Shown: positions 2,131-56,715 of the stretch, one piece after another
Numbering within the stretch: position 1 is the first letter of the stretch
Layout of the letters: the number at the start of each line of letters is the position of its first letter
Assembly (NCBI GenBank): GCA_024679065.1
Contig: JAGIQG010000009.1
Span: 102,610,001-102,674,000 of the forward strand
Direction: 5' to 3'
Length of the DNA: 64,000 nt
Origin: Sphyrna mokarran
Lineage: Eukaryota
The notes under the pieces: model-generated
Seen by the model: only the letters and a program-made list of their open reading frames with translations
What the model was told of the DNA's origin: nothing
Databases searched by the model: none
Program-made: the position numbers and the translations under genes

Positions 2131-2522
2131 GCTCTTTAAACCCATCCTGCCTGCCACTTGCACTACACTCAGGTCAATTCATACACTGCTGCTCCCCCCA
2201 AGGGAGTGCTGCGCAGTCAGAAGCCTTGTCTTTCGGGTGAGGTTGAAGAGTGTAGGAATTGTCCCCAGTGTTGTTAGCAGATATCAATCCCTCAAATCAA
2301 CACACCAAAAAAAAGCCCAGAAGTTTCCGGCTGGTAACCCTGCTGTCGTGAACGGAGATTTGGCTGAGGGTCAAATTTTCCATCCTCACTTGCAGCGGTG
2401 ACTGGCCATGAATGGCTTGTTGTTGTCACACTGCGGAATCAAGGTGTGCACAAACTGACAGTCATATTTTCTACATTAGGGCAGTGACTGTCCTTCGTTG
2501 TGTCCTTTCATGGGGCTATTTA

Positions 2523-5500
2523 AATACACTCGGAACGAGTGCCTAGTTCGAGTCTTTACGTCGCTCGTCGACGTTTTTGTCAACCTCTAGCGAAACCCCA
2601 GTCAGGGGGGCTCACTTGATCTTGATTGAGGTACGTGTGTTGGAGTCACCTCTAAGATGTTACTAGCTAGAGAACGTGAGTTGGGTTCACAGCTAAGGTG
2701 TTATAGCTAGGTCGTGTTGTCATCCCAGGTGTGTATGGGCTTACTGGTGAGCCAATTTTGTCGGTCCTTGGTACTCGGGTCTCTGTACCCGCATGCATGG
2801 GGTGTCAATTTAGAGGGAATCAGGCCGAATTAAGGGGGTTCATTTCATTGACACTTTAGTTTCGCCAATCAGCCTGTTATAGCACGTTTTTGGCCATGTG
2901 GGAGGAAACCGGAGTGCCCGGGGAAAACCCACGCAAGCACAGGGAGAATGTGCAAACTCCCGCAGACATTGACCTTGGCCGGTAATCCGCCCTTGATCTC
3001 TGTAACTGCCCAGCCGACAGTGCTAGTCACCGGGCTGACGTGCTGCCCAAAGTCAGTCCATGTCAGCTCACACTACCGGCAGTGAAGTTCTGGATCACTC
3101 TCAGATCTCCACCCAAGAACCATCCATGCACCACCCGCCGAGTGCATGCCCCTTGTCATAGACAAGGTGGACTGTGACACCTGTAGGTGTAATAGGTGTT
3201 AGTATACATATTTACACATCACACGCTGTACAGTATATACAAACACACAGTCCGACAAACACCAAAGAGTCCTCCATATTGACATATGGGCTCTGCAGAG
3301 GGCAGTTTGCCATGATGTCTGACAAGTGGCCAGCTTGTCCTCCGGTTGTGATTGCCTCTCACCTGTCGTTGAAGATCCCCAATATCTCCAACGTGAGTGA
3401 CAAGGTGAGCCTTGAAATTTGTTGGGCGAATGAACGGAATCTCTTTATTCCCAGGAAGGCCATGAGGCTGTTATTCTTTTCCAACCATTTGCTCCTGGCG
3501 CCAACAACAAATCCAAAGTATTTGGGGTTCGGGCATCCCGTCAATTCCTCAATTTCTGGTCCCAGATGTTGGTACTTCTGGCACTTTTCCTGCCACGCCT
3601 TCTCCAGACTGTCATAGTTGTCCTCAAACCGGACTGTCACATCCACCACCGCTACCTGCTGGTCCTTTTCCCTCTTGAAGACGATGTCCGGCTTCCAGAG
3701 GCTGCCGTCCTTGGCAATGAGCCTTGGCTCCAGGTATGATGTCCAGCCGTATTTTCCGACATACTTATGCAGTTGGTCCAGGATCTTATTATGGCGTTTG
3801 ATCCGGCAGTTTTTCACGAATGGGCAAAAGCCTGAAATGTGACCGAGTGTTTCAAGACCTGTCCCACACCTTCGACAGGTCTTTGTGGCAGAGGGGTTCC
3901 CTCTCGACAGGGTCACCCTCGTCGGGTATAGGTTGCACCGGAGTAGCATGTTATTTACCAGGCGATGGGACTTCAGCTGGTATGCAGCCTTCATCCAACT
4001 GTTTGAAATTCTGTCATCGTGGTAGTAGTGAACTCCCACTCCTTGTGATGTGAGCTGTCTCCACTTGTGGAATTCCCATTCCCTCCACCCAGCATATCTA
4101 TTCAGTGGTTTGCTGGGTCCTGTCTCCTCGGCCGCCAGTGTCGGCAGTGCGGCTCTGATCATGGCTGTTTCGTCATTGCCACCGTCTTCCCTTGTAGGCA
4201 TGAAGTCTTCGATGTCCCTCAAAGCCTTGAGGGATCTCAGATCTTCGATGTTTCTGCCAACGTCCTGTTCACAGAACTGGAATGAGGCGCGAATGACTTG
4301 ATCTGTGGAGGCAGACAGTGCTTCCCATTTTCGGATCACCGCAGATGGTATCTGGATCTCGAGCTTAGGAATGCCCAGACCTCCATTTCGCGCCCGCGAA
4401 TAGAGGATTCCATCTGTAGTATGAGGTGGAAGGTGCAGGAACTGCTTGACAGCATTGCATATTAATTGGTCCAGTTTTACCAGCGTGTTCTGTGACGCTC
4501 CAGTTAGGATCAGGTGATAGTACAGCCTTGGTATGACATGGACAGTTAGCAGCTCGACGCGTTGCCTTGGGCGAAGAGCTGCTGCTTGTAGACTGGAGAT
4601 CCAAGTCTTCAGCCTGTCCTCCCATGCTCCTTCTTCCACACCAGCCCACGGGTCTATCCGGGCTCCCAGTTATTTCTCTGTCTCACCTGGTGGGATGTAT
4701 GCAATCTCTTCCTTCTGAATCCTCCAGTTTTTGCATTGATTATAAATAAAGGTCTTCCTCTTACAGGTGAAGTGGAATCCTTTGGTCTTGTTGATGTTGA
4801 CAGTAAGACCAGTCATTTCGCAAAAAGTCTGAAGAACCTTCAGGTTCCGTACCATCCCGGTGTGCGAGTCACTGAGCAGGGCAATGTCATCAGCAAACGC
4901 AAGGGCGGAGCAGTTGATTCTCACTCCATCTAGCATCATACTGACACCAGACTTAGCCGCTTCCAGACTGCACAGCAGTGGATCCAAAGCAATATTGAAT
5001 AGTACCGGTGAGAGCGGGTCTCCTTGCTTGACACCCCTCTCGATTGTTATTGGGGTGGTTTTCGACTTGTCGCCTTCCACCACCGTTGTGTTGCCAGTGT
5101 AGAGATTCTGAATGAGCTCCACAAAGGCGTCTGGTAGTTTGACTCTCTGTAATGCTTTAAAGAGTAGTTTGTGACCAACTGAGTCGAACGCTTTCGCCAA
5201 ATCAACAAAGACGACTGCGAGGTCCTTGTGGTTTTTCTTAGCTCCCTTCATTATATTTTGCAACACTGCAATGTTCTCATTGCACCCGGAGTAGCTGCCA
5301 AAAACCCTTTCTGCCTTGGGTTTATGTCGACTGTCTCACTCAGTCGTTTCGCCATGATCTTTGTAAATAGGCGCAGCAGCATTGGACCGATGGTAATTGG
5401 TCGCCAGTTGTCAATATTTTTAAGGCGTTCCCTGTCCTCGCATTTTGGGATCAGGACCGTTCGACTCTGTTTCATACAGAGAGGGATCGTCTTTGAAGCC

Positions 5501-6886
5501 AACCACAAGGAGAAGAGACGAGGTATGCGGGTTTCGTAGGCCTCGTGTATCTTCCGGATGTCCTCCAATTTCTGCCCATCCGGTCCAGGCGCGCTATCCT
5601 CCTTTATGCCCTTGATGGCCTGGGTAACCTCCTCTTCGGTGATTGGCTTCATCAACTCACCGTTATCTGTATTCCCATTGTACGCTTGGAATTTATTGAT
5701 ATTTGCCTTATTGTTCTGACTGGAGAGTTTCTCCCGAAAGCTTGCCTCCAGTTCCTCAGTCGTAAGTGGACATTTCATTTGTGTAGGCGCGCCCATGATC
5801 TGCCGGGCTAGTTGACGCCTATTGTTCTTGTAGAGCATCTGTGTTGCTCTAAAGACGGATTTCTGTTTTGCCCATCGTTTCTTTGCTCCACTATTAACCT
5901 CGTGCCGAGGCCCTCGGTTAACTTTCTTTCGTGCCTTCTCTTTCGGACAAGCCTTCTTTTGCCCTTTTCCATCACCTCTCATCAGAAGGTCAGTGATGCT
6001 CTCGATTAAACCCACTGCCAGGGTTAGATCTTCAGGGTCGTTCCTCGCAGATAATAGCCTCTCGATTTGGCTGAGATTCTCCTCCACATCCCTATGCTTA
6101 GGGACATGTGCCATAGGCTGACTGATGGAACTTACCTGCGGTACCAGATCTCTGACATCTCCCTCTTCAGGCTCCTGTTCTCTCTCAGAGTCTGGGTTCT
6201 CAGCCACAACTGGGAGTGCGTTGTTTGCTGATTTGCGCGCATTTGCCAGCAGCCTGCGCTTTTCAGAGATTTGTTTGGCCGTTTTAGTTGTTAAAATACT
6301 CCCAATCTCTTTATTGATGTACCGGGCACCAACAAATCTCTGTTCAAGCTCCACGAGGAGCGATTCCTCCTCCTCGGACCATACGCTCTTACTTCTACCT
6401 CGTTTGGCTGGGGGCTTAGGTAGTGCCTTTTCCGCACGTTTTTCATTGCGGAGGACCGGGTGACGGTGTCGCTCATGCTGGCTGAGTCCACTTTCTGTAG
6501 TGAAGGCCAACTCACATGCACTGCACTTGTATTGACCCACTGCCAGAGGCTTCACGCCCTGACATTTTGGGTAGTGGCAGGCAATTGAGTGGTACTCACC
6601 AGTCCTCCCGCACCGAGCACACTTAGTCACGATCTTCTTGGTCCTGTGCACTTTCTTGAGATGGTCTCTGAAAGCCCCAACCGAGGAGTGTATGGACTTG
6701 CAAGGCTTGCAATACAACGCATCAGTAGGGTAATGGATCACCACCTCCTTAACCTCTGAGCGGTCCTCTGTAGATGTTATTGTAATTGTCTCGATGAAGG
6801 TGCCCTCCTCCTGAGCACCTCCATCGCTTGCGGTATTTTGGCTGTTATCATTATTTCCCAAGCCCTTATTCAGGGCTAAATATGCC
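2523..6886 (-). mobile_element. R2-clade non-LTR retrotransposon, 5'-truncated, inserted outside rDNA
   Basis: Single ORF (3359-6886) broken by one frameshift (~5280) and one in-frame stop (4670, KYLG to K*LG). It encodes three N-terminal zinc fingers, a Myb domain (WSEEEESLL..KTAKQISEKRR), RT (GVKQGDPLSP, LAFADD), a CCHC knuckle and a restriction-like endonuclease (RHN, KPDIV, VDVTVRFE, KCQKY). It has an ~835-nt 3' UTR and a candidate 5-bp TSD ATTTA at 2518-2522 and 6887-6891. Confidence 0.9.
2850..3215 (-). ncRNA. Structured 3' UTR cassette in the R2 element: TACTAAC branch point, CTACAG|G acceptor, multi-stem RNA and degenerate tRNA-head/V-SINE domain
   Basis: Colinear similarity and compensatory base changes relative to 26410-26770 and 55550-55880. 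Confidence 0.6.
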
Positions 6887-7351
6887 ATTTAGAGCTTGGG
6901 GTGTACTGAGTTCATAGAATCCCTACAGTGAAAGAGGAGGCCGTTTGGCCCATCAACCCCGCACCAACAACAATCCCATCCAGGCCTTACCCTGTAACCC
7001 CATGTATTTACCCTAGCTAGTTCTGCTGACACTAAGGGGCAATTTAGTTTGGCCAATCACCGTAACTGCCTCATCTTGGGGCACTAAGGAGCAACTTAGC
7101 ACGGGCAATCCACCTAACCCGCACATCTTTGGAGTGATGTGGAGGTGCCAGCATTGGACTGGCACAGTAAAAATTCACACAATACCTGTCCAACAGGTTT
7201 ATTTGATATCACAGGCTTTCGGAGGCTACTCCATTAGAGAGTGGAGAGTTGGGTTCACAAGCATGGCATATATACACAGAGACTCAATTGCAAGATAATG
7301 ATTAGAATGTGAGTCTTTTCAGATAATCAAGTCTTTGGAGTGTGGGAGGAG

Positions 7352-18700: not shown

Positions 18701-19037
18701 AAGGCCTGTGGAGGATTATGTCAAAGTTCGATTGCCCTCCTCCCAAATTCATTCAGATCATATGCCAGTTCCATGATGGCCAGAGAATCCTCTGAGGCAT
18801 TCCCAGTCACCAATGGTGTCAAACAGGGCTGTGTGCTCACATCACACTGCTTGGCATGATGTTTACTGCCATGTTGAATGATGCCTTCCAGGACAGTGTT
18901 GCTGGAATCAGCCTCAAGTACAGAGTGGATGGGAAGCTCTTCAACCTGAGGAGACTTCAAGCTACTACCAAAGTGAAAGAGACTGTTCTGAGAGATTTCC
19001 TCTTTGCTGATGACTGCACCCTGTATGCTGGTTCAAA

Positions 19038-21809
19038 CTCAGTAAAGTTTTGCAACACCAATTTTAAATCCAACCAATTTATTTGATAGTAAATCCGCGA
19101 GCTTTCGACACTATGTTGTGCCTTCGTCAGGCAAATGCAGTGTTCTGATCTGCAGAGGCACTCAAATCCACACAGACAGTTACAGATTGCTGATTAGAAT
19201 GCGAATCCTTACATCTAACCTGCTATTCAAGTGTTAAAGTGGCTAACAATGTGTGTGAAGGGAATCCTGAGCATTGGTTAGAGAATTGTGTATTTTCTCC
19301 AGACAGCACAGTAAGTGAGGTTTTTTGCTAACCCAGGCAAGTTACGGGGGTTACAGATAGTGTGTCATGAAGCCAAGATCCCTGTTAAGACCATCCTCGT
19401 GTGCGGAGCTTGGCTATCAGTCTCTGCTCAGCGACTCTGCGCTGTCGTGTATCACGAAAGCCCCCTTGAAGAACATTTACCCGCAGGTCGGAGGCCGAAT
19501 GCCCATGACTGCTGAAGTGTTCGCCCACAGGAAGGGAACGGTTTTGCCTGGTGATTGTTGAGCGATGCTCATTCATCCGCTGTCATAGTGTCTGCATGGT
19601 CTCCCCAATGTACCATGCTTCGGGACATCATTTCTTGCAACGTATTAGGTAGACAATGTTGGCCGAGTTGCAAGAGTATGTACCGTGTACCTGGTGATTG
19701 GTATCCTCACGTTTGATGATGTCGTCCATGTCTATGATCTGACATGTCTTGCAGAGGTTGCTGTGGCAGGGTTGTGTGGTATTGTGGTCACTGTTCTCCT
19801 GAAGGTTGGGTAGTTTGCTGCGAACAATGATCTGTTTAAGGTTGTGCGGTTGTCTGAAAGCAAGAAGTGGGGGGGGGGATGTCCCTAGCGAGATGTTCAT
19901 CGTCATCGATGACATGTTGAAGACTCCGGAGAAGATGTCGTAGCTTCTCCGCTCCAGGGAAGTACTGGACAACAAAGGGTACTCTGTCTACCTTGTCCCG
20001 TGTTCGTCTTCTGAGGAGGTCAGTGCGGTTTTTCGCTGTGGCACGTTGGAACTGTTGATTAATGAGTCGAGCGCCATATCCTGTTCTCACGAGGGCATCC
20101 TTCAGCGTCTGGAGGTGTCTGTCACGATGCTCCTCATCTGACAAATTCTGTGTATACGGAGGGCTTGTCCATAGGGAATGGCTTCTTTAACGTGTCCAGG
20201 GTGGAAGCTGGAGAAGTGGAGCATTGTGAGGTTGTCTGTCGGTTTGCGGTACAGTGAGGTGCTGAGGTGACCGTCCTTGATGGAGATGCGTGTGTCCAAG
20301 AATGCAACTGATTCTGGAGAATAGTCCATGGTGAGTCTGATGGTGGGATGGAACTTGTTGATATCATCATACAGTTGTTTCAATGATTGTTCACCATGAG
20401 TCCAAAGGAAAAAGATGTCATCAATCATTGAAACAACTGTATGATGATATCAACAAGTTCCATCCCACCATCAGACTCACCATGGACTATTCTCCAGAAT
20501 CAGTTGCATTCTTGGACACACGCATCTCCATCAAGGACGGTCACCTCAGCACCTCACTGTACCGCAAACCGACAGACAACCTCACAATGCTCCACTTCTC
20601 CAGCTTCCACCCTGGACACGTTAAAGAAGCCATTCCCTATGGACAAGCCCTCCGTATACACAGAATTTGTCAGATGAGGAGCATCGTGACAGACACCTCC
20701 AGACGCTGAAGGATGCCCTCGTGAGAACAGGATATGGCGCTCGACTCATTAATCAACAGTTCCAACGTGCCACAGCGAAAAACCGCACTGACCTCCTCAG
20801 AAGACGAACACGGGACAAGGTAGACAGAGTACCCTTTGTTGTCCAGTACTTCCCTGGAGCGGAGAAGCTACGACATCTTCTCCGGAGTCTTCAACATGTC
20901 ATCGATGACGATGAACATCTCGCTAGGGCCATCCCCACCCCCCCACTTCTTGCTTTCAGACAACCGCACAACCTTAAACAGATCATTGTTCGCAGCAAAC
21001 TACCCAACCTTCAGGAGAACGGTGACCACAATACCACACAACCCTGCCACAGCAACCTCTACAAGACATGCCAGATCATAGACATGGACGACATCATCAA
21101 ATGTGAGGATACCATTCACCAGGTACACGGTACATACTCTTGCAACTCGGCCAACGTTGTCTACCTAATACGTTGCAAGAAAGGATGTCCCGAAGCATGG
21201 TACATTGGGGAGACCATGCAGACACTACGACAGCGGATGAATGAGCATCGCTCAACAATCACCAGGCAAAACAGTTCCCTTCCTGTGGGCGAACACTTCA
21301 GCAGTCATGGGCATTCGGCCTCCGACCTGCGGGTAAATGTTCTTCAAGGGGGCCTTCGTGACACACGACAGCGCAGAGTTGCTGAGCAGAGACTGATAGC
21401 CAAGTTCCGCACACATGAGGACGGTCTTAACAGGGATCTTGGCTTCATGACACACTATCTGTAACCCCCGTAACTTGCCTGGGTTAGCAAAAACCTCACT
21501 TACTGTGCTGTCTGGAGAAAATACACAATTCTCTAACCAATGCTCAGGATTCCCTTCACACACATTGTTAGCCACTTTAACACTTGAATAGCAGGTTAGA
21601 TGTAAGGATTCGCATTCTAATCAGCAATCTGTAACTGTCTGTGTGGATATGAGTGCCTCTGCAGATCAGAACACTGCATTTGCCTGACGAAGGCACAACA
21701 TAGTGTCGAAAGCTCGCGGATTTACTATCAAATAAATTGGTTGGATTTAAAATTGGTGTTGCAAAACTTTACTGAGTTTACTCCAGTCCAACGCCGGCAT
21801 CTCTACATC
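19038..21809. mobile_element. Penelope-like element (GIY-YIG) present as a ~1.35-kb-arm inverted duplication
   Basis: RT C-terminus (IDDIFF) and GIY-YIG (NVVYLIRC..WYIGET..RMNEH) on both strands; 13-bp TSD ATGCTGGTTCAAA at 19025-19037 and 21810-21822. Confidence 0.92.
21678..21721 (+). ncRNA. Minimal type-I hammerhead ribozyme in the PLE pLTR (mirror copy at 19093-19136, - strand)
   Basis: ATTTGC-CTGACGA-AGGCACAACATAGTGTC-GAAA-GCTC-GCGGAT: CUGANGA and GAAA cores, stems I and II pair, and a minimal palindromic stem III as known for PLE hammerheads. Confidence 0.8.
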
Positions 21810-23275
21810 ATGCTGGTTCAAAACCAGAGGTGCAAATCAATATAGACAAATTTTCCATGGCTTGTGACAATTTTGGACTCACCATCAACATTAAAAAGAT
21901 CGAAATCATACACCAGCCTACTCCTCATGCACTGTACACAGAACCCATAACCACAATCAAAGGGCAGAAACTACAGACAGTGGACCAGTTCACTTATCTT
22001 GGCAGCACCCTCTCCCAAGCAGTGATTATTGATGCAGAAGTTAACTGCAGAATAGCAGAGGCAAGTTCTGCTTTCAATGGACTGCGGTCCACTGTATGGG
22101 AACATCAAGGAATCAGTCCAGCCACAAAACTGAAGGTCTACAATGCTGTGGTACTCACCACCCACCTGTGTGCCTGTGAAACGTGGACTGTGTATCGAAG
22201 GCATTTGGGACAACTCAATTATTTCCACATGACTTTTCATTGCAGAATATTACACATCCATTGACAAGACAAAGTGCCAGACACTGAAGTTCTCTCTTGA
22301 GCAAGTCTACAATCAGTCCACACACTGCTGATGAGAGCGCAGACCCTGTGGGCAGGTCGTGTCGTCCGTATGTCAGATGAACGCAAACCCAAGCAACTCC
22401 TTTTTGATGGACTCTCTGCTAGAAGACGCTCACATTGGAGGGCAGAAGGAACGTTACAAAGATACACTCAAGGCCTCCCTGAAGTCGTTTGACATTGACA
22501 CGACCACCTGGTAAACGCTGGCACAAAACCACCCCTACCTGGCGCTGCCTCATCCGCAAAGGCTGTCAAGCTCACGCAGCAAGGTGTATTGCTGAAGCAT
22601 AACTTAAGTGCGAGCTGCACAAGTCCAGAACCACCAGCGCAATAACTACAGTGTCTACACGAGTCTATCCAATATGTGCCAGGACATTCCATTGCCCGAA
22701 TTGTCCTGATCAGTCATCTTCGGATACATCGCATCCAGCCTCAAAATGACTAATAGTGTTGAGGTCCTCATCGACGATGATGGACGAACAACAACATTCA
22801 CGTATGCATCCAAATGCCTCTTAAATGTTGCTCATGTGCCTACTTCCACCATCTCCTCTGGCCGTGTATTCCAGGTACCCATCGGTTTCTGTGTGAAAAT
22901 CTTCCCCTGCCCATCTGCCTTAAACTTTCCCCCTCTCGCCTTAAACCTGTGCCCCCTTATAATTAACACTTCCACCCTCTGGAAGTGGGAAAAAGCCTCT
23001 GACAATCCACACTGCCTATACCTCTTATAACTTTATAGACCTCTATCAGGTCCCCCCACAGCCTCCATCTTTCCAGTGAAGACAATCTTAGTTTATTCAC
23101 CCTGTCCTCCTAGTCAATGCCCTTGAGACCAGGCAACGTTCTTCTTTGCACTCTCTCCATAGCTTCCATGTCCCTCTGGTAGTATGGCGACCAGAACTGC
23201 ACACAATACTCTAAATACAGCCTAATTGAGGTTTTATGTATTATATTGTCAATATCAATTTGCTTATTTTCCCAG

Positions 23276-23380
23276 GGTTCCAGTCCGTTCAAGAGAAGCT
23301 GCAGCATTTCCTGGAATTTGCCCCAGTGCTTTCATTTATCTTTCTCCTTGTTGCGTGTGGGTGTTGGGTACAGACTGAAG
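23276..23380 (+). CDS. Ig-5TM gene exon 5: TM2 (RFQSVQEKLQHFLEFAPVLSFIFLLVACGCWVQTE)
   Basis: TTTTCCCAG| acceptor and AAG|GTATGT donor, phase 1-1, hydrophobic segment. Confidence 0.8.
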
Positions 23381-25467: not shown

Positions 25468-25554
25468 TGTGCCACGAAATTTTCAATGTCGTAACGTCGG
25501 TGGAAGATATCATTGCAATGTCTATTCTGTTTGCTGAAGTACTGGGACAAACTG
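25468..25554 (+). CDS. Candidate extra or cryptic exon, paralogous to the TM4 exon (xCHEIFNVVTSVEDIIAMSILFAEVLGQT)
   Basis: TTCACAG| acceptor and G|GTGAGT donor, open phase 1-1 frame; aligns to 31349-31444. Confidence 0.45.
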
Positions 25555-25824
25555 GTGAGTTCCAATGATACAGTTATGATGAACAAATCGTCTCTGAAAG
25601 TGACATTTGATTTGATTTATTATTATCATATGAATTAATATACAGTGAAAAGTATTGCTTCTTGCACATTATACAGACAAAGCATACCATTCGCAGAGAA
25701 AGAAGTGAGAGAATACAGAATGTAGTGTTACAGTTATAGCTATGGTGTAGAGGAATATCAACTTAATGCAAGGTCGACCCATTCAAAAGTTTGATGGCAA
25801 CGAGGAAGAAGCTGTTCTTGAGTC

Positions 25825-26914
25825 AGACAGTTACACTGATTCACTCGCCTGGGTCCCCCGCTGGCAGCAGCAATCCCGGTATATTTACTGTGGGAGTTTA
25901 AAGACGGCACTTTCCCCCACCTGGCCACTCTCCTACCTTCTGCTGTCCCTGCAGCCAGGCCTGATTAGGCCCCACATTCCAGAGAGTGCAGAGGAGGTTT
26001 ACCAGGATGCTGCCTGGTATGGAAGGTCTGAGTTACGAGGTGAGGTTAGGCAAATTGGGGCTGCTTTCCTTAGAAAGACGTAGACTTAGAGGAGATCTCT
26101 TAGAGGTGTACAAGATTATGAGGGATATAGATAGAGTAAACAGGGTTGAGCTCTTTCCTAGGATGGACTCGAATAGCACGAGGGGTCACAGGCTTAGGGT
26201 GAGGAGGGTAAGATATAATTTGGATGCTAGAGGGAGTTTTTTCACACAGAGGGTGGTGGGGGTGTGGAATGCGCTGCCAAGTGAAGTGGTGGAGGCAGGT
26301 ACTCTGGAGTTATTTAAGAAATACTTAGATGTGCGCATGAACAGAATGGGAATGGAGGGGTATAGAAAACTGATTTAAAATAGGGATCATGAGCCTTGGG
26401 AGTCCCTGGGAAGTGTGTAAATAGATGATGATATTGATGCACTTGTTTTTATCCTACAGGTGCTTTGGTCCACCTTGTTGTCTAACAAGGGGCATACACG
26501 CGATGGGTCATGAGAGGGCTGCTCTTGGATTTCTTTTTTCGAGAGTATCCTAGTGCTTCACATCATTAGTGTACACTTGACCTGGACCATTTGATGGGCA
26601 ACAGGACAGTTCAGTGACTATCGCTGTGCTATGCAGATACATGGATTTGGGTCTGTGTCTGTGGGAGTTTGCGCATTCTCCCCGTGCTTGTGTGGGTTTT
26701 CTCCGAGTGCTCCGGTTTCCTCCCACATCCCAAAGATGTGCTCTTAGGCTAATTGGCAAAACAAATTCTCCTTAAATTGTCTCAAATTTGGTTTTTAATC
26801 CATAGATCTATAAACATAGACAGGGATTGCGGGTAGATGTGGGAACATCGGGGTGACGGCGTGGGCTCGTTGAGCCGAAGGGCCTGTTTCCTGTGCTGTT
26901 TTGTTCTTTGTTCT
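25825..26914 (+). mobile_element. CR1-family LINE 3' portion with an unusually long (~540 nt) composite 3' UTR
   Basis: ORF2 C-terminus 25981-26378 (ERRRLRGDL), then the structured cassette and V-domain, then a CR1-type tail with (TTCTTTG)n; TSD-like TTGAGTC at 25818-25824 and 26915-26921 inside a Rex1 relic. Confidence 0.85.
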
Positions 26915-28766
26915 TTGAGTCTTTTGGTACATGATCTCAGAATTTTGTATCTTTTTCCTGATGGAAGAAGGTGGAAGAGAGAACGTCTGAGATACATGGC
27001 ATCCTGGGCTGCTTTGCCGAGGCAGTGGGAAGTGTGACAGAGTCAATGGATGGGAGGCTGGTTTGCGTGATGGATTGGGCTACATTCATAACCTTTTATA
27101 ATTTCTCGTGGTCTCGGGCAGAAAAAGAGCCATACCAAGCTGTGATACAACCAGAAAGAATGCCTTCTAAGATGCATCTGTAAAGTTGGAGTTGTAGCTG
27201 ACATGCCAAATTTCCTTAGTCTTCTGAGAAAGTAGAGGTGTAGGTGGACGTAGGTGAGAAGGAAAAGAGAGGTGCAGAATTAGTATTACAGTCATAGCTA
27301 GTGTTTAGAGAAAAATCAACTTATAAGGTGATTTTTTTTTTTGAATGAATATAACTCCTATCAAAAGTCTGATGGCAACAGGAAAGAAGATGGTCTTGAT
27401 CCAGTTGGCATGTGATCTCAGACTTCTGGATCTTTTTTCCAATGGAAGGAGGTGAAAGAGAGTATGTCCAGAGTGTATTGGGTCTTTGAATATGCTGCAA
27501 CTTTTCCAAGGAGTGGGAAGTGTAGACGGAATTGATGCATGGGAGGCTGGTTTGAGTGATGGAGCCTTACCAAGCTATGCTACATCCAGAAAGAATGCTT
27601 TTTATGGTGCCTCTGTGAATGTTAGCGAGAGTCGTAGTGGGCGTGCCGAATTTCCTTAGCGTCCTGAGAAAGTGGAGGCGTTGGTGGGCTTTCTTAACTG
27701 TAACGTCAGCATGAAGGACTAAGACTGGTTGTTAGTGATCTGAATGTTTAGAAAATGAAGCTGTCAACCAGTTCCACATCATCCCGTGGGGAGCAGTGCA
27801 AGTAGGAGGGTCAATAATAGTCATCAATTTGAAGGTTACCTCTTTAAACTTGCTAATGAGCTAGGAGAGAAGACAGCAAAAATTTCTTGATGTTGAGTGT
27901 TTGCACACAGATTACTCTGTCACATGGAGCAATTGTTCTTTCAAATTCATTCATTCATGAGATGTGAGTGTTGCTGGCTAGGCCAGTGATTATTGCCCTA
28001 TTTGTCTATGTGAAGGTAGCAGTGAGCTGCCTTCTTGAACCAGTGCAATTCATGAGGTGAAAGGACTCTGACAATGCTGGTAGGCAGGAAGTTGTGGTGA
28101 TGGCGGATGTAGTTTTTAAAAATTTATTCAGTCTTAGAACATGGGCGTCACTGGTTGGCCAACATTTATTGTCCATCCCTAGTTGCCTGAGGGCATTTGA
28201 GAGTCAACCACATTGCTGTGGCACTGTAAGCCAGACCAGATGGTAGATTTCCTTCCCAAAAGGACATTAGTGAACCAGTTGGGTTTTCTTGATAATGGTC
28301 ATTAATAGGTTCTTAATTCTGGATTTTTTTATTGAATTCAAATTTCACCATCTGCCATGGCAGGATTCGAACACAGGTCACCAGGGCATTAGCTGAGTTT
28401 CTGGATTAACAGTCTAGTGACAATGCCACTCGGCCATCACCTGCTTTATGAGCGGATGATGATGTATTTCGAGTCAGAAAGTTGTAGGACTTTGAGGGGA
28501 ACTCGAAGCTGGTGAAGTGCCCTTTTTCCTGAGGCAGTGAGAGTTAAGATAAAAATGGGGAGGCGGTGAAGCAGTGAAACTTAATTTAGAATTACTCTTG
28601 CAAATTACTGGATGGACTTAACGAGTCAAATAATGCCTTCTCTGCTCGTAAACATATGTAAGTCTATCAATGAGCAATTTCATGAAGGAATGTGTAATTT
28701 TCATTTGTATTCATTTTTTAGCTAATCAGCGTATGTAATTTTATTCACCTTTTGTTCTTTACTTAG

Positions 28767-41060: not shown

Positions 41061-44000
41061 AATCTTTGCCAATAATACCCATGTCTCAAAAGAATGAAGG
41101 AAAAAACCTCCAAGTCAGGAAGTTTCTTGTTCATGTTCACCTCCAGGAGCTTGGCATCAAATCTAGGCTGACACATCAGTGAAATATTTAGGGAGTGCTG
41201 CACTGCCAGAGATGCGACTTCTAGATAGAGTATAAACCAATTAAATTGATTTGATTCGATGTATTATTATCACGCCTTTTGGGATAGTGAAAAGTTTTGT
41301 TTCTTGTGAGTTATCAGAGACAAAACAGTCATAGAGTACATAGAGAAGAAGGAAAGGATAGAATGTAGAATGTAATGTTGGATTTACCAATAGGGTAAAG
41401 AGAAAGATCAGCATAATATAGGTAAGACCATTCAAAATTCTGATGGCAGCAGGAAAGAAGCTGCTCTAAGTCAGATGGTTCATGACCTCAGATTTTTGTA
41501 CATTTTTCCCGATGGAAGAAGGTAGAAGAGAGTTTGTCCAGGGTGCGTGGGGTCCTTGATAATGTTGGTTGCTTTTATGAGGTAGCGGAAAATGTAGATG
41601 GAGTTAATAGTTAGGAGGCTAGTTTGCATAATGAACTGGGCTACTTTCATAACCCTTTGTAATTTTTTGTGATCTTGGGCAGAGCAAGAGTCATACCAAG
41701 CTGTGTTACATCCTGAATGGATGTTTTTGTTTATACATCTGTAAAAATTGTAGAGTCGTAGTGGACATGCTGAATTCCCTTAGCCTCCTGAGAAAATAGA
41801 GGCGTTAATGGGCCCCAAGACACCATCTGTCTTTTCACATGGACCTAACAGATTCAACTATTCTGCAGATGGGCTGTGAGTGCTACCAGGTTTTGTGCCA
41901 ATGATTGTCTCCCACCCAGTCTCACTGAACTGATTGTTTTGCTATTGCATCAATTCTGTGGGTGGACACTTGGTGCTATACTTCTTGCATAGATGCTATA
42001 AATTATAAAACTACCTCATTGGCAGCAAAGCACTTTGAGATGTCCTGAAGCTATGAAATCTACTTGTCATGTTTCTATATCTGTCTCTGATTTCCATGCA
42101 TCCCTGTCTCCAGAGTTGAAGGCATTCAGATTCTTGTGACTGTGGTAACGGTGGGTATTCCAAAGACTCTTTTCTCCTTTGGAATTCCTCTCCACAGTCA
42201 CAGTTGACAAATTTAATTTGGACATATCCCACGACTGCAAAAAAGGGGCTTGCAGAAGCCAACAACCATCCTGAGACACAGCCAACTAGGCCATGTTCAC
42301 TGGCTTTTTATCTGAGTCATGAGAGAAGTTGTAGTCTAGGTTGCTGTGGACCTCAGAGGGGAATTTGCAGGCGGTGGTGTTCCCATGCCCTTGCTACTTG
42401 TCTTTCTAGATGGTACAATTTGTAAGACTGGAAAACGCTGTCAAAGCAGGCTTGGTGAACTGCTGCAGTGCACTGTGTCGATGAAATATACTGCAGCAGG
42501 ATGGCAGAGTGGTTTACACTGTTGCCTCTCAGCTTCAGAGACTGGAGCTCAATTCTCCTCTTGTGTGGTTGTCTATGTGGGTCTGCACATTCTCCCAATG
42601 TCTGCATGGGTATCCTTCAGATGCTCCAGTCTCTTTCTCAGAATTAAAAGATTTGCAAGTTAGTTGGATTAACCATACTAAATTGTTCCTGCATGTTCCA
42701 AGGTGTGGAGATAAGAAGGATTAGTCAGGTAAACAAATGGGATTTAAGGGGATTGAGGGTTATAGATAGGCCTAGTAGGTAGGGATATGATCAGGCATTG
42801 TAACTGAAGAAGGAAGATCAAAGATCTTGCTCGGAATTGGAAGTTTGTGTCATGTTTGTTACCAAGACTCATGATATATAAACGCCCACTTGTGTTTGTG
42901 TTCCTTGAGAAGCCTAGCAGTCCTTGTTTGGAACCAATTTCTCCCAAAGCTCTGGAATAAAAGCCAGGGCTTTGAAATAAAAAATCACTGTATTTTGACT
43001 CACCAGCAGTCTCAGAAGTATTATTTTAACTACAACAGTGTCATTTGTAAACTTACGAACCATGCTTCCTATATTTTGCATAAAATGACAACTGTCCACC
43101 CTCATAGTCTAGGAAATCTCCGATCTTCCAAGAATTTGCACTCAGGGTGAGGCGGGTCCAAGAGGCGGAGATGGAGGCAAAATAACCTCTTTCAGGAATC
43201 AGCTCCACAATCCAGAACCCGGTCTCATGTCTCAGGGAGATAAACCCTTTCCTGTTCGCAGAACTCTCGGACCATCTCCAGAATCTATTCTGTGTTTCCC
43301 CCGCCTGCACCTTCCAGTAATCATTAAATCTTACAGTGCAGAAGGAGGCCATTTGGCCCATTGAGTCTGCACTAACCAGGATCTTGCCAAGGCCCTATTT
43401 TCGTAACCGCACACATTTATGCTCATCCCTCTGATGCCAGGCTCAATTTTTAGGATAGCCAATCAACCTAACGTGCACAACTTTGGATTATGGGAGGCAA
43501 CCAGAGCACCCAGAGGAAACACACACAGACACGGGGAGAATATGCAAACTCCACACAGACAATGCCCAAGGGCGGAATCGAACCTGGATCTCTGATGTTG
43601 TGAGGCAGCAGTGCTAACCACTGTGTCACTGTGCAGCATTCCAGACATTTCCTTTTGTTTTTCTTTTGATTTTCCTTAAAATTCTGCTTCTCTAATGTCT
43701 GTATGGCTCCCTGATGAACAATGATAATCAATGTTTCCCAGAATGACAAATGAGACCAGTCCAGTCTCCTGGAGCAATTCTACTTCTGATTCTGAGATTA
43801 GTGCTCTATTCCTCTGGTTATACCGATATCTTCGCTGCTTTGACAGATGGCGGACTTCAAACATTTACACAGAAAAACCCACAGAAAGTGAAATATGAGA
43901 GTGGAGAGAGTCCTGACAGTTAACAACCAACAATGCAAGTATTTCATTTGGGATCATGGAGCCCGTTTAGTTTATTTATAACCGGATTCATAACTAGGAA

Positions 44001-44271
44001 AATTAATATGGGTTTTAATGGGATTAATGGAGTCTATTATTTCTCTCCATGTTGTACTGTAAAGGACCTTTGAACTTTCCAATAGACAAGGTAGCAGCAG
44101 ATATGGAGAGTGAGTAATTCACTAATCCTGCACGTGTTAAAACAATGATGTTGTAAATCTGTCTTTATTAGAATATTTTCAAACTTGTTATGATGAGGTT
44201 TTCAGCTCTTTTGATGATTGAGAGAGTGCACCAAGTGAAATGCTAATCTTGTTTTACTTAACTGAGAAAGA

Positions 44272-44420
44272 TTACAATCAATGATAATTTCTGCTGCGCT
44301 GACATTATCTATTCTTGGTGTAACCTTTCAACTCTACAAAACATGTAAGCAATGATGGTAGACGTTGTTTCAAATATATTATAAGGGGCACATGTGCTAT
44401 GAGTAGAAACCTTGACTGGG
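44272..44420 (+). pseudogene. Orphan duplicate of the TM5 exon 3' part plus downstream intron
   Basis: LQSMIISAALTLSILGVTFQLYKT then T|GTAAGC; similarity to 33533-33680 continues into the intron (AGAAACCTTGACTG); no clear acceptor. Confidence 0.75.
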
Positions 44421-46390
44421 CCTTTCACTTCAGTTACACATGATAAATAGCCAGGAAATGTGGCACAGTGGTTAGCACTGCTGCTTCACAGCGCTGGGGA
44501 TCTGGGTTCAATTTCAGACTTGGGTCACTGTGCTGAGCCTGTACATCTTCCCTGTCTCTGCATGGGTTTTCTCCAGGCACTCGTTTCCTCCCACAATCTG
44601 AAAGATGTGCTGGCGTTAGGAGCATTGGCCGTGCTAAATTCTCCCTCAGTTTACCTGAAGGGATGGAGATGGGGTGTGATGACTAGAGGATTTTCACAGT
44701 AACTTCATTGCAGTATTAATGTAAACCTACTTGTGACACTGATAATAATAACAACTTGGGAATTCAAGGGCATAGATTGGAAACACTCAAGTCCTGAAAA
44801 AAAATGTGCCAAACCTGATAATGGAATTGTTAACAAGACTTTATACACTTCCTCTCTATTTCTCTATCTTGATTTAAAATTCTCCAAAATCCATTTCTGT
44901 CATCCAGATTAATATTTTCTTTTTTGTCTCTTTGTCAATTTTCTTTATAATGCTCTTGTGAATTTCCTTTAGGGCATCACGTTACATTAAAAGTATCGTA
45001 TAAATACAAGTGTACATTGTTGTGGTTGTTAAGAACTTCAACGGGGCACAGGAAGTTGGCTTCCTGTAGTATGAACTCCCTGACAGAGGTGGTAATCAGT
45101 GATTCTCATCTGTATATAAAACTGGGAGTGTCAGGTCTCCTGGCACTGCGGATTCTGGCTGCTTACCTGAAGCAGACTTTTGAGTGGAATAGAGTTTGTA
45201 GATAAAGTGAATCTGGTGAGGGAACAGCGGCCCACAAGGAGCTATTTCACAGAACCAGTTTGTATTTAGAATAAAAATAAAGTCCGTAAATGTGTGAAGT
45301 TATTGGGTTGTTCAGACTCTGTGCACATGACCCGCTCCTTGGAAACATCAGCTGTGTGGTTTTTACAGGATGAGTGGGAAGTCACAGACACAAACAGCCA
45401 ACGTTACTTCCGGCCTGGAAATCAGTTTGTATTGTTTACACTTTACCAGGTTCCACTATTGTAGAACCGTTACGTTAAATCACTGTAATAAAGGCAGGCA
45501 TTACAAAACTTTTGCCCCGAACTAACAGAATCATGGAATTCCTACAGTGCAAAAGGAGGCCAATTGGCCCATCGACTCTGCACCAATAACAATCCCATCC
45601 AAACCCTTTCCCTAACATTTATCCTGCCAGTCCCCCAGTCACTAAGGGGCAATTTAGCATGGCCACTCCACAAACCTGCACATCTTTGGACTGTGACAGG
45701 AAAGCCACACAGACACAGGAGAATGTAGAAGCTCCACACAGACAGGTACAGGATTTGAACACAGGTCCCTGGTGCTGTGAGGCAGCAGTACTAACCACTG
45801 TGCGGCATCAAAAATGTGATGCTGAACATGGGGCTCTTGATTAAAAGTCTCGTGCTTTACCAACTGCGCTAGGTGGGCTTTGTCGACTGAGATAGCTGGA
45901 CTGTTCCGGCTGAGTTAGCTGGGCTCGACCAGGCAGTTGGTGGAGTTTTGGTGGCCCAATAAACGGCTATTTAATGTTGTGACAACAACTACTTAAATAA
46001 ATCACAATATCAGTTCACTGAGTTTATTTTACCAAATGGCAGAGTTTCAGTGAAGAACGTGTCCTATCTTCTCTTCTGACAAAACCTTCTCCTGAAAGAA
46101 ATGGATGAGGAACAGTGAGGGTAACAGTGACAAGTTTCAGGAGGAGTTCAACACACTGGTGAAATCCGAGCAGACTCGGAACAGATGAGATTTCACACGA
46201 AAGTGTAAGGTGATGCATTTGGAATGAAGATTGTGGAGAGTCAAATAAACTGGAATTGAACATCAGTCTCCACTCACAGACACAGAGGCTGGAATTATAC
46301 TGCTCCATCCACCAAGGGCATCAGAGCGGGTGGGAGAGGGGGGCAGACAATAAAATGGTCCATTTACCTCAAGCAGGATTTCATGGTTTC

Positions 46391-46626
46391 AAAGAACAAA
46401 GAGCAAAACAGCACGGGAAACAGGCCGTTTGGCCCAACGAGCCCGCGCCGCCACCCCGATGTTCCCACTTCTACCTGTGATCCCTGTCTATGCTTATAGA
46501 TCTATGGATTAAAAACCAAATTTGAGACAATTTAGGGAGAATTTGTTTTGCCAATTAGCGTAAGAGCACATCTTTGAGATGTGGGACGAAACCGGAGCAC
46601 CCGGAGAAAACCCACACCAGCACAGG
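46391..46626 (-). mobile_element. 3' end of the composite-UTR CR1 family
   Basis: Near-identical to 26680-26917 and 55393-55635. Confidence 0.85.
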
Positions 46627-49600: not shown

Positions 49601-50902
49601 GTAAGGCAATGACTGTGAAAATCCCCCAGTTGCCACACTCTGGCGCCTGTTTGGGTACAGCGAGGGAAAATTTAGCATGGCCAATGCACTTAACCAGGAC
49701 GTCTTTTGAACTGTGGGAGGAAATCGGAGTATCTGGAGACCCAAGCAGACACGGGAAGAATGTGTAGACTCCACACAAACAGTGACCCAAGCTGGGAATC
49801 GAATCCAGATACTGGCAGCACTACTAACCAATTCATTGGTACATCACATTGCAATAAAATAATCCACTGATAAAATATGTCTTCTTCCACTTTGTAGATT
49901 TCGGCAGCTTCTTAATCGGGATGAAACAGTGCTCGCTGTGTGTTCTGATGAATCTTTACAAATCAGACAGATTCACAAAATAGCTTCAATTTTTCCTGAT
50001 GTTCCTCACAGTGACGTTCCTTCACTTTTGGATCCAAGTCTATTTTCTAAGCTTTCTTGGCCAGATTCGCGAAGGTCCGATTTCCCTTGAGGTCTCTTTG
50101 CAGACACTCCTGTCTACATTCTGAGCAGGAGTTTATCTCCTTAGTTTCCCAACACTGGGTGATACAGGAGCGGCAGAAGTTGTGTCCACAATCCAGCGTT
50201 ACCGGCTTGGTGAAGAAATCGAGGCAAATGGGGCACTCTGCCTCCTTGGTCCAACTCTCTTTGAGTTGGCTGGAAGGCATCTTCAGATTCAGTACTCCCT
50301 GATTCAAACTGCTCTCAATTTCACTGTTGCTACCGAACAGTCTTTTTCCTAAATACTCCATTATCCAATCTTGAGATTTTCACACTGAAGAAAGAAACTC
50401 AAACAATTTAAAGGATAATGAAGGGGAGAAGAGGGAAGGCAGGGGAGCAGTGGTATTGTCGCTGGACTATTAGTCAATGACGCAGGTAATGCTCTGGGTT
50501 TGTAATCAGCATGGTGGAACAGTGCTTAGCACTGCTGCCTCCCAGCACCAGGAACACGGGCTTCTTGGATTAGGTCAGTGCCTGTAAGGAGTCTACGCAT
50601 TCCCCTCATGTCTGTGTGCATTTCCTCAGGATGCTCCAGTTTCCCCCCACAGTCTGAAAGATGTGCCAAGTAGATGCATTGGCTATGCTAAATTCTCCCT
50701 CACTGTACCTGAACATGCGCTGGAGTGTGGTGACTAGGGGACTTTCTCAGTAACTTCATTGCAGTATTAATGTAAGCCTACTTGTGAAAGTAATAAATAA
50801 GTTTTAGAAAACAGCAGTGAGTTTAGACTGGACGGAAGTGCAATGAAATCTCAATCCCGCCCATCTCCTGATTTCTCTATCCCTGTCTAAATCCCATTGT
50901 CA

Positions 50903-54249: not shown

Positions 54250-56715
54250 TATATCGAAGGAGGAAATATTGGGTATCCTAAATTGCATCAAGTAGATAAA
54301 TATCTGGGACCTTAACAGATATCTTCACATCCTCGTTGACCACAGGCAAGGTTTCAGAGGACTGGAGAATAGTCAATGTCATCGTTCCCTTGATTAAGAA
54401 AGGAAGTGGGAATAATCCAGCAAATATTGGGCCGGTGAACCTGACGTTTGTGGTAGGGAACATTTTGGAGAATATATTGAGGGACAGGATATATTTGCAC
54501 ATTTGAAAGAAACTGGACTAGTTAGTGCTGAGCTGCATTGTTTTGTATAGGGAAGGTCATGTCTCACCAACTTGATTGAATTTTTTGAATAGGTGACAAA
54601 GATGATTGATGAGGGAAGGGCTGTGGATGTAGTTTATATGGACACGAGAAAGGCATTTGACAAGGTCCCACGTGGCAGACTAGTACAAAACCTAAATTCA
54701 CATGGGATTTGGTATGGATTAGCTAGATGTATATAGAACTGGCTTGGACATAGACAACAGAAAGTAGCAGTGGAAAGATTTTTTTCAGAATGGAGATCTT
54801 TAGCTAGTTGTGTTCTGCAGGAATCAATGCTGGGACCTCTATTGTTTGCAGTATATTTAAATAACCTAGAGGAAAATGTGGGTGGTCTGATTAGTAATAT
54901 TGTGGATGACAAAAATTGGTGGAGCTGCTGATAGTGCTGGGGATTGTTAGAGAATATACCAGGATAGAGATAGATTGGAGACTTGGGCACAGAAATGGCA
55001 GGTGGTGTTTAATGCAGATAAATGCGAGATAATATATTTTGGAGAATTAAATTTAGGTGGCAATTATACTGTAAACAGCAGAACATTTAGGAACATTAAT
55101 ACACAAAGAGTCTGGGTATGCAGATCCACAGTTCTATAAAAGTGGCAACACAAATGGCCAAGATGATTAAGAAGACATACAGCATTCTTACCTTCACCCA
55201 CTGGGGCGTTGCACACAAAAGTTGGCAAATAGCCTTTATAGTCTTATCTATAAAGAGAGGTTGGATAAACTTAATTTATTCTCACTGGAAAGATGGAGGT
55301 TGAAGGGTGATCTGATAGAGTTTTAAAAAATTATAAGGGGCATGGACAGGGTGGATAATCAGATACTGTTTCCTAGAGCAGAAAAGTCAATTAAAGAACA
55401 AAGAACAAAAAACAAAACAGCATGGGAAACAGACCCTTCGGCCCAATGAGCCCGTGCCGCCACCCCGATGTTCCCACTTCTACACGCGATCCCTGTCTAT
55501 GTTTATAGATCTATGGATTAAAAACCAAATTTGAGACAATTTAGGGAGAATTTGTTTTGCCAATTAGCCTAAGAGCACATCTTTGGGATGTGGGAGGAAA
55601 CCCGGAGCACCCGGAGAAAACCCACGCAAGCACAGGGAGAATGCGCAAACTCCCACAGACACAGGCCCAAATCCATGTATCTGCACAGCACAGCGATAGT
55701 CACTGAGCTGTCGTGTTGCCCATCAAATGGTCCAGGTCAAGCGTACACTAACAACGTGAAGCACTAGGATACTCTCAAAAAAATCCAAGAGCAGCCCTCT
55801 CACGACCCATCGCGTGTATGCCCCTCGTTAGACAACAAGGTGGACCAAAGCACCTGTAAGATAAAAACAAGTACATCAATAATAAAAACAAGTACATCAA
55901 TAAGGGACATTAGTTTATGCTGCATGGGGAAAAGTTTAAAGGCAAATTTTTTACATAAAGCATGGTGAATTTCTGGAATGCCTGGAGAGGTAATGGGAGC
56001 AGGTATGATGATGGCATTTAAGGAGCAACTAAAATATTACATGATTAGGATGGGAATGGAAGGATATGTTCTCCATAAGCGCAGTTTGGAGAGCTGAAAG
56101 GCCTATTTCTGTCCCGTAGTGCTCTTTGTTCTTTGTAAATCATGTTGCAGCTATATAAAATGTTGGTTAGGCTGCATTTAGAGTTTTGTGTGCAATTCTG
56201 GTCACCACACTACCAGAAGGACGTGGAAGCCTTGGACAGAGTGCAAAGAAGTTTCATCAGACTATTGCCTGCTCTCGAGGGTGTTGGTTATGAGGAGGGT
56301 TGAATAAACTGAGATTGTTTTCTCCAGAAAGACAGAGGCTGAGGGGAGATCTAACAGAGGTGTACAAAATTATGAGAGGCATAGACAGGGTGGAAAGTCA
56401 GAGATATTTCTTCCAAGGTGGAAGTATCATTTGTAAGGGGCACAGGTTCAATGTGAGGGGAAAGTTTAAGGGAGATATGCGGGGTTAAGTTTTTCAAGCA
56501 GGGAATGATGGGTGCCTAGAATATGCTGCCAGAGGAGATGGTGGAAGTAGGCAGTTCAGCAACATTTTGAGAGCCATCTGGAAATAGGGAGGAAATAGAG
56601 GGATATGGACAGAGTAAGGGAGGAAGTTTTTTTTTCGGTTTAGATGGGGCAGCATAGTCGGTGCAGACTTGGAGGGCTGAACGGCCTGTTCCCGTGCTGT
56701 ACTTTTCTTTGTTCT
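54250..56715 (+). mobile_element. Degraded CR1 ORF2 relics (two copies), the first interrupted by the 55393-55900 insertion
   Basis: Decayed SCLTNLIEFF, KAFDKV and ERQRLRGDL motifs plus CR1 tails. Confidence 0.75.
55393..55900 (-). mobile_element. 3' UTR-only copy of the composite-UTR CR1 family (cassette, V-domain and tail)
   Basis: Highly similar to 26432-26917; the 5' end lies at the branch/polypyrimidine tract, with a 20-bp tandem duplication ATTGATGTACTTGTTTTTAT. Confidence 0.85.

Follow-up and report, generated by a model that had tools for sequence, protein, structure and literature searches.

Introns on the sense strand of a retrotransposon should vanish in each round of copying. At the locus studied here, a branch-point motif and a 3' splice acceptor were kept at the head of the same 3' UTR module in LINEs of two clades, and the question is what maintained them; such retention points to a role in the unspliced RNA or to regulated splicing. 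The locus lies in a stretch of 64,000 nt from the shark Sphyrna mokarran (assembly GCA_024679065.1, contig JAGIQG010000009.1, positions 102,610,001 to 102,674,000 of the forward strand), which is called the window below. A first-pass annotation of this stretch, made from the letters alone, had proposed that the elements splice out their ORF to express the downstream cassette as a non-coding RNA or that they capture host transcripts.

Module copies in R2 and CR1 elements

An R2 element and a CR1 family of the window each carry the same 3' UTR module, composed of putative 3' splice signals, a predicted folded RNA of approximately 135 nt and a promoter-disabled SINE (Table 1). The R2 element was identified by Pfam matches (C2H2, with one match above and one below the cut-off, and RVT_1) and by its protein homologues, which are R2; its likeness to the entries in the visible part of Table S2 of PMC13188248 was judged by eye. 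Its 3' UTR is 843 nt long. The match of its 3' end to that of the zebra-shark element R2-1_STig, as displayed in the same table, fixed the end of the element at 2519, where it abuts TAGCCCCATG, a sequence that is 8/10 like the 28S target TAGCCAAATG (target taken from the visible part of Table S2). The copy does not lie in 28S rDNA before TAGCCAAATG: the flank TAGCCCCATG belongs to a host intron, and there is no Rfam match in the window.

The CR1-family copies are designated c1, c3 and c4. Copy c1 is a single insertion that extends from the ORF2 end to the tail and is flanked by a 7-bp duplication. Approximately 150 nt at 25825-25978 (+) lie inside the target-site duplication of c1 ahead of the ORF2 piece and could be either captured RNA or the 5' end of the family. 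The start of copy c3 falls on the branch motif itself and includes a tandem duplication of 21 nt (55902-55882); this start (55902-55874, minus strand; one copy) may mark an RNA end or a stop of reverse transcription. Because c1 and c3 are 93% identical, the three copies that cover the junction (c1, c3 and R2) represent only two independent lineages. The 5' part of the CR1 family is absent from the window, and each junction between a LINE and the cassette is represented by a single copy.

Table 1. Positions of the module, its parts and its surroundings in the window.
Feature	Positions	Strand	Remarks
R2 element	2519..6912	-	5'-truncated and frameshifted; zinc fingers and RT; antisense in host intron 1, outside rDNA
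Ancestral R2 3' end	2519..2592	-	matches the end of zebra-shark R2-1_STig as displayed in its source, 42/53 columns by eye
R2 V-SINE	2806..3048	-	A box altered; B box mutated (2991-2981)
R2 structured domain	3049..3180	-	z -2.6
R2 GT-AG interval	3181..3362	-	182 nt; four TGTA words; TACTAAC (3204-3198); CTACAG acceptor (AG 3182-3181)
R2 donor CAG/GTGAGA	3357..3365	-	8/9; spans the end of the ORF (last codon plus TGA stop); intron begins at 3362
Host exon directly 5' of c1	25468..25554	+	phase-1 donor CTG/GTGAGT; real next host acceptor at 28766
c1 left target-site duplication and 5' end of insertion	25818..25978	+	duplication 25818-25824, then about 150 nt; no second copy in the window
CR1 ORF2 3' end	25979..26378	+	stop TAA 26376-26378; about 71% identity to other CR1 copies of the window
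Block TGTGTAAATA	26414..26423	+	upstream homology edge with the R2 copy; identical at 3218-3209 (-)
c1 branch-point-like motif and acceptor	26432..26459	+	TATTGAT (26432-26438, A 26437); tract 11/14 pyrimidines; CTACAG/G, AG 26458-26459
c1 structured domain	26460..26595	+	predicted three-way junction; stem 26466-26472/26583-26589, short hairpin and long arm; z -2.7
c1 V-SINE	26596..26780	+	A box altered; about 19 nt over the B box deleted; central core from 26657; right edge approximate
CR1-type 3' tail	26874..26921	+	(GTTCTTT)n repeats; ends in right target-site duplication TTGAGTC (26915-26921)
c4, shorter CR1-family copy	46389..46626	-	starts within the SINE core; without acceptor
c3, 5'-truncated CR1-family cassette copy	55392..55902	-	TATTGAT at -22; TTACAG/G, AG 55855-55854

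Putative splice signals at the head of the module

In a U2-type 3' splice site, the A of the branch consensus lies approximately 18-40 nt upstream of the exon and is followed by an AG-free gap. In c1, c3 and R2, the branch A was found at -22, -22 and -18, the AG-free zones were 33, 64 and 43 nt long, respectively, and YAG/G was present at the junction in 3/3 copies. The pyrimidine tract scored 11/14 in c1 and c3 and 9/14 in R2; five host acceptors scored 10-12/14. Two counts over the 8,723 AGs of the window (both strands) indicated that the signals are more than a chance occurrence. When AGs were filtered for YAG/G, a tract with 11/14 pyrimidines or better, 20 nt or more free of AG and a loose branch motif, c1 and c3 were among the 17 that passed, and the R2 site failed because of its tract. 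The R2 site was the only AG with YAG and an in-range 7/7 TACTAAC without an intervening AG (TACTAAC occurs five times in the window).

The first-pass annotation had located the motifs of the three copies correctly. Its statement that a branch-point-like motif precedes the acceptor in each copy covering the region is true of three copies that amount to the two lineages mentioned above, and the pyrimidine tract, which it described for the CR1 copies, is weak in R2. It had also reported that the signals are kept and the bases between them diverge, and this was borne out: after approximately 30% divergence, the spacer between branch and AG was altered in both length and sequence, whereas the branch consensus, the AG-free zone and CTACAG/GTG were retained. 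The branch motifs of R2 and CR1 differ at three positions, and all three differences are transitions allowed by the consensus. The claim that strong conservation begins at the acceptor had to be abandoned since homology already starts above the branch motif, at TGTGTAAATA, which lies 37-46 nt from the exon start; above this block, the alignment is lost (16 matches over 38 nt).

The UGUA(H)AUA motif within TGTGTAAATA is presumably of the Pumilio type. Three of the eight TGTA(H)ATA words in 128 kb (both strands) lie within 60 nt upstream of these acceptors, at 26416 (+) and at 3241 and 3216 (-). All three junctions read CAG/GTG (26457-26465; 3183-3175; 55856-55848) and score 6-7/9 as donors, which is weak. 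The AG/GT arrangement is that of recursive splice sites.

A donor over the R2 stop codon

The stop codon of R2 lies inside a strong donor that closes a 182-nt interval with the acceptor. This arrangement was missed by the first-pass annotation and is new here. The four TGTA words of the interval fall within 37 nt. Six donors with a score of at least 8/9 were found in R2 (at 6599, 6515, 6135, 5660, 4686 and 3362), and the donor at 6135 scored 9/9 and is in phase 0. The R2 reading frames thus hold six such donors, where 400 synonymous shuffles gave 1.5 on average (p 0.0025, one of 12 tests). The excess was gone when donors of at least 7/9 were counted (8 vs 8.1), and five other element sets were without excess.

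The predicted structured domain

In addition to the c1 domain, the R2 and c3 domains, folded separately, gave a like predicted three-way junction. The fold z-scores were -2.6 to -2.7 for the sense strand vs -0.9 to -1.7 for the antisense strand. Across the lineages, 46/54 predicted pairs (control 40.0, p 0.01) and 52/58 predicted pairs (control 41.7, reached in 0/20,000 permutations) were kept. For c1, the value was 41/54 (p 0.07). Where bases differed, the pairs were kept mostly through one-sided changes, and double-sided base changes in the domain were not above the permutation control. Rfam contained no family for the domain at the gathering score, and only matches with E values of 3.5 and 9.2 were obtained elsewhere. 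A conserved peptide in the cassette was rejected because the reading frames differ between R2 and CR1.

R2 elements carry an HDV-like ribozyme at the 5' end. An HDV-like or hammerhead ribozyme in the cassette was rejected after a crude scan, in which no hammerhead core was found and a loose HDV-like pattern was present in R2 and absent from c1 and c3.

The embedded V-SINE and the origin of the module

The embedded SINE is complete and aligns with 22 free copies (tRNA-derived head and central core) of the commonest SINE family in the window. We take it to be an HE1-type V-SINE, a name supported by the available portions of PMC3747384 and PMC4824008. Intact Pol III boxes were found in 0/3 cassette copies (A or B); among the free copies, the A box was intact in 14/22 and the B box, loosely defined, in 16/22. 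Four derived SINE characters occur in 3/3 cassette copies, and the three of them that were checked in the free copies occur in 0/22. The modules of R2 and CR1 therefore have a common origin: considering this distribution, the SINE was likely captured once, and the module was then likely transferred once between the R2 and CR1 clades. Both copies that reach beyond the left edge of the module are joined to a LINE ORF end, and the embedded SINE is thus not a free-standing dispersed unit.

Three pattern matches in metagenome contigs were considered as additional copies of the module and judged to be due to chance (two in one bacterial-looking frame and one in microsatellite-rich DNA). Viral contigs contained 0 matches to the cassette pattern and 0 loci for the R2 protein.

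R2 relatives in other sharks and rays

According to the visible part of Table S2 of PMC13188248, the rDNA-resident R2-1_STig resembles the R2 element of the window in its zinc-finger N-terminus, the start of the 3' UTR, the 3' end and insertion before TAGCC. Its 3' UTR comprises 216 nt and lacks the cassette, whereas the R2 of the window occupies a 28S-like site within a host intron, and its 3' UTR is longer by approximately 630 nt, among them the entire module. Since the two UTRs start and end alike, the module is, as far as the table displays them, an acquisition relative to this rDNA-resident relative. Neither this absence nor the embedded, disabled SINE had been noticed in the first annotation. 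The R2-1_STig UTR likewise opens with TGAG, the preceding base lying outside the visible text, so that the stop-codon donor may be older than the cassette.

Among the 13 chondrichthyan rows covered in this table, none of the five with 3' UTR sequence (two given whole and three as their first 400 characters) showed the module; eight rows, including catshark and two lamniforms, are without 3' UTR sequence, and the module may be present there. No such module is noted in the visible part of the table, and the strings 'SINE' and 'splic' are absent from the main text as available (PMC13188248). By eye, the visible UTR of the rDNA-resident stingray element R2-1_HSa contains CAG/GTGAG and TACTAAC, and that of the rDNA-resident bamboo-shark element R2-1_CPu contains a CAG/GTGAG word and a long T tract before TAG (PMC13188248). 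Such words can therefore occur where splicing is unexpected.

In the Mustelus asterias gene model XP_078059768.1 (P0001), the R2 segment ends at GIFNDR and runs on into sequence without a match in any frame of the R2 3' UTR. Since the model leaves R2 there, the annotation pipeline put a donor at this very codon in a second shark; the predicted model joins a different exon, not the cassette. It sets an exon from the R2 endonuclease region between two zinc-finger arrays and is probably chimeric. Splicing was rejected for two Chiloscyllium R2 models with extended C-termini, which by eye look like UTR read-through. Scyliorhinus, Chiloscyllium and Mustelus likewise have R2-derived gene models on contigs that are not of rDNA size.

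Possible use of the acceptor

We favour, at a probability of roughly 40%, a reading in which the acceptor would be real and selected and would be used inefficiently with the element's own donors. Splicing would occur in a minority of element transcripts, while retrotransposition would proceed from the unspliced RNA. All three junction-covering copies keep the intron side, which indicates integration from unspliced RNA. The stop-codon donor is the partner predicted for R2: the 182 nt with their UGUA motifs would be excised, the 3' end of the element would be retained, and the C-terminus would change from ...FNDR to ...FNDRCHSPPCL. The acceptor would thereby offer a nearby sink to a donor that otherwise joins downstream host exons, as in the Mustelus model, with loss of the R2 3' end. 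A helix that begins no more than 7 nt from the AG may dampen use of the acceptor. Recognition by the spliceosome, the partner donors, the low efficiency and the benefit are what we infer from the sequence features.

Two consequences bear on this reading. Because a spliced product loses the branch point, survival of the signals over approximately 30% divergence would need a benefit to the unspliced element or regulated splicing. In addition, splicing at the stop codon would not cut into the ORF; spliced copies are thus to be expected and might displace the intron, and in the window 0/3 copies covering the junction were spliced. This also holds for the retrocopies with a precisely removed ORF that the first-pass annotation had envisaged. 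The best donor in the 250 nt upstream of the c1 acceptor scores at most 6/9, and none reaches 8/9 in its 414-nt ORF piece; no strong CR1 partner donor was thus found in these stretches.

The first alternative, which we regard as unlikely, is that the splice words are an unused relic. The module would have been copied from a host pre-mRNA at the last intron-exon junction, or the AG would be a chance edge, and selection would have acted on the fold or on nothing. The survival of the branch consensus, the AG-free zone and CTACAG/GTG despite the changed spacer argues against a relic, as does the matching donor of R2 182 nt upstream. However, homology does begin within the intron-like part and ends approximately 45 nt upstream, which is what one would expect of a captured fragment; c1 is without a strong nearby donor; blocks of 8-11 identical bases are spread over the whole module when R2 and CR1 are compared; and the splice-like words in the visible UTRs of rDNA-resident R2 elements fit this reading as well. 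If the splice signals were a relic, what is left would be a composite 3' UTR of LINEs that is undescribed but only modestly interesting.

It is quite unlikely that the signals serve binding without splicing, with SF1, U2AF, U2 and UGUA-binding proteins causing the LINE RNA to be stabilized, formed at its 3' end or exported like a last exon. The unspliced state of 3/3 copies, the intact host gene, the clustering of TGTA(H)ATA words near acceptors and the many U1-type words in R2 would be accounted for. Nevertheless, AATAAA and ATTAAA are absent after the cassette in c1 and R2, and binding alone would not require a YAG/G to be kept at step-2 distance from the branch motif. Unspliced introns were reported to shield transgenes from HUSH, but splice sites around stuffer DNA gave no shielding and short introns gave little (PMC8770142); evasion of HUSH as the purpose is disfavoured by these controls.

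Improbable enough to be ranked after binding is a subgenomic RNA, either a short cassette RNA formed when upstream donors remove most of the ORF or a zinc-finger/Myb-only protein, spliced from 6135 and extended by a tail of 35 aa, which could dampen the element. The former is the ORF splicing of the first annotation. The donors at 6599, 6515, 6135, 5660 and 4686 and the phase-0 frame of the cassette, open for 35 codons in R2, are compatible with such products, and splicing in the L1 5' UTR and ORF1 is a precedent in the part of PMC5860796 available. However, the nearest of the six R2 donors, that at the stop codon, would remove only 182 nt and compete with the others, as do weaker internal acceptors; the window contains no ORF-less spliced copy, and the cassette frames are not conserved between R2 and CR1. 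The R2 5' UTR is missing from the window copy, and its donors are out of view.

Very unlikely is a host exon trap, in which sense intronic copies take upstream host exons in the manner of SVA, truncating genes or retroposing 5' exons. The phase-1 product GALVHLVV followed by a stop had been predicted correctly for the c1 acceptor; splicing from the TM2 exon was right as to phase 1 and wrong as to the exon since the adjoining upstream exon is 25468-25554, not 23276-23380. Copy c1 lies in a host intron in the sense orientation, and its tract matches those of true host acceptors and lies 2.3 kb before a true one; SVA_F1 gained MAST2 sequence via splicing (PMC3287187, as available), and exonization of intronic transposable elements is suppressed in soma and higher in testis (accessible part of PMC10901741). 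Truncation of the receptor was nonetheless not upheld. The host gene (902-38126, +) has 11 exons with an intact joined frame of 472 aa and canonical internal GT/AG sites; its closest relative is Mustelus asterias LOC144496861 (Ig exon identity 90%), and the exons past c1 show 62-88% identity to the Mustelus protein (tblastn), about the same match as the exons before c1. No AATAAA or ATTAAA occurs from c1 to the next host acceptor, and no donor above 6/9 closes an exon in the 500 nt past the acceptor. A host exon was joined to the acceptor in 0/3 integrated copies, no cassette peptide was present among the proteins gathered for comparison, and the phase-2 frame had three 5-residue words in common with no longer protein, a weak test that covered this one frame of the three. 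Moreover, trapping alone cannot maintain a branch point that its spliced product lacks. Constitutive trapping of host exons by c1 is thus unlikely; low-level or germline use may occur.

Relation to known systems and significance

The favoured reading resembles what the available text of PMC5860796 describes for human L1, an autonomous LINE that keeps rarely used donor and acceptor sites, with unspliced RNA driving propagation; use of the sites is a prediction here. In the same text, the L1 sites lie in the 5' UTR and ORF1 and are explained by factor-binding or coding constraints, whereas the acceptor of the module lies in the 3' UTR. Unlike the L1 SpIREs, it heads a captured piece, is common to two LINE clades and is associated with 0/3 spliced retrocopies. 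SVA_F1, as described in the part of PMC3287187 at hand, is likewise a composite retroelement with a SINE-derived part headed by a splice acceptor; however, SVA is non-autonomous and has a host exon in integrated copies, whereas the shark module stands behind LINE ORFs and keeps the intron side. In its tRNA-type head, central core and, in the CR1 family, CR1-type tail, the module resembles the HE1 V-SINE with its HER1 (CR1) tail, as far as PMC3747384 and PMC4824008 were available. In contrast to free HE1, its SINE has altered or deleted A and B boxes and sits in LINE 3' UTRs behind a structured domain and an acceptor. Here, a SINE gave sequence to LINEs, opposite to the LINE-to-SINE flow described in the available part of Kojima 2018 (PMC5786205). 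The module thus illustrates both this movement and that between R2 and CR1, with a predicted fold kept after loss of the promoter boxes.

In the literature searched, whose scope excluded Repbase/Dfam and most subscription papers, no splice acceptor or SINE-containing module was described in shark R2 or CR1 3' UTRs. The composite 3' UTR module common to R2 and CR1 in this shark is real and probably undescribed so far, and its putative splice signals are credible. A broader and rather doubtful proposal is that an R2 lineage that left rDNA for RNA polymerase II territory might have gained a transferable last-exon module, in which a short spliceosomal intron of its own is followed by a new structured RNA and by a SINE that has been domesticated. 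Such a module would keep the RNA of this lineage intact in host pre-mRNAs and would be fit enough to move to CR1. If this were true, a retroelement would hold an intron under selection, and there would be a handle on the role of the conserved V-SINE core once Pol III transcription is gone. The function of the core becomes testable in a retrotransposition assay, and the module-free rDNA-resident relative offers a natural comparison for the adaptation of R2 on leaving rDNA.

Other residents of the window

The host gene, which has six hydrophobic exons and encodes two Ig domains, appears to be that of a shark receptor; its relatives are labelled HEPACAM-like or CD276-like. Long inverted repeats with self-matches of 98% and 91% were found at 19035-21812 and 50901-52079, respectively; the element contains an RT fragment and an endonuclease-like frame, and we take it to be of the Penelope type. 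The repeat at 19035-21812 splits an RTE-like LINE. A gene at 43056-50379 (-), with a RING frame at 50379-50050 and a PRY/SPRY-like frame at 43394-43056, is presumably TRIM-like. Copy c4 lies inside this gene in the sense orientation, and c3 lies 5.0 kb upstream of the RING frame.
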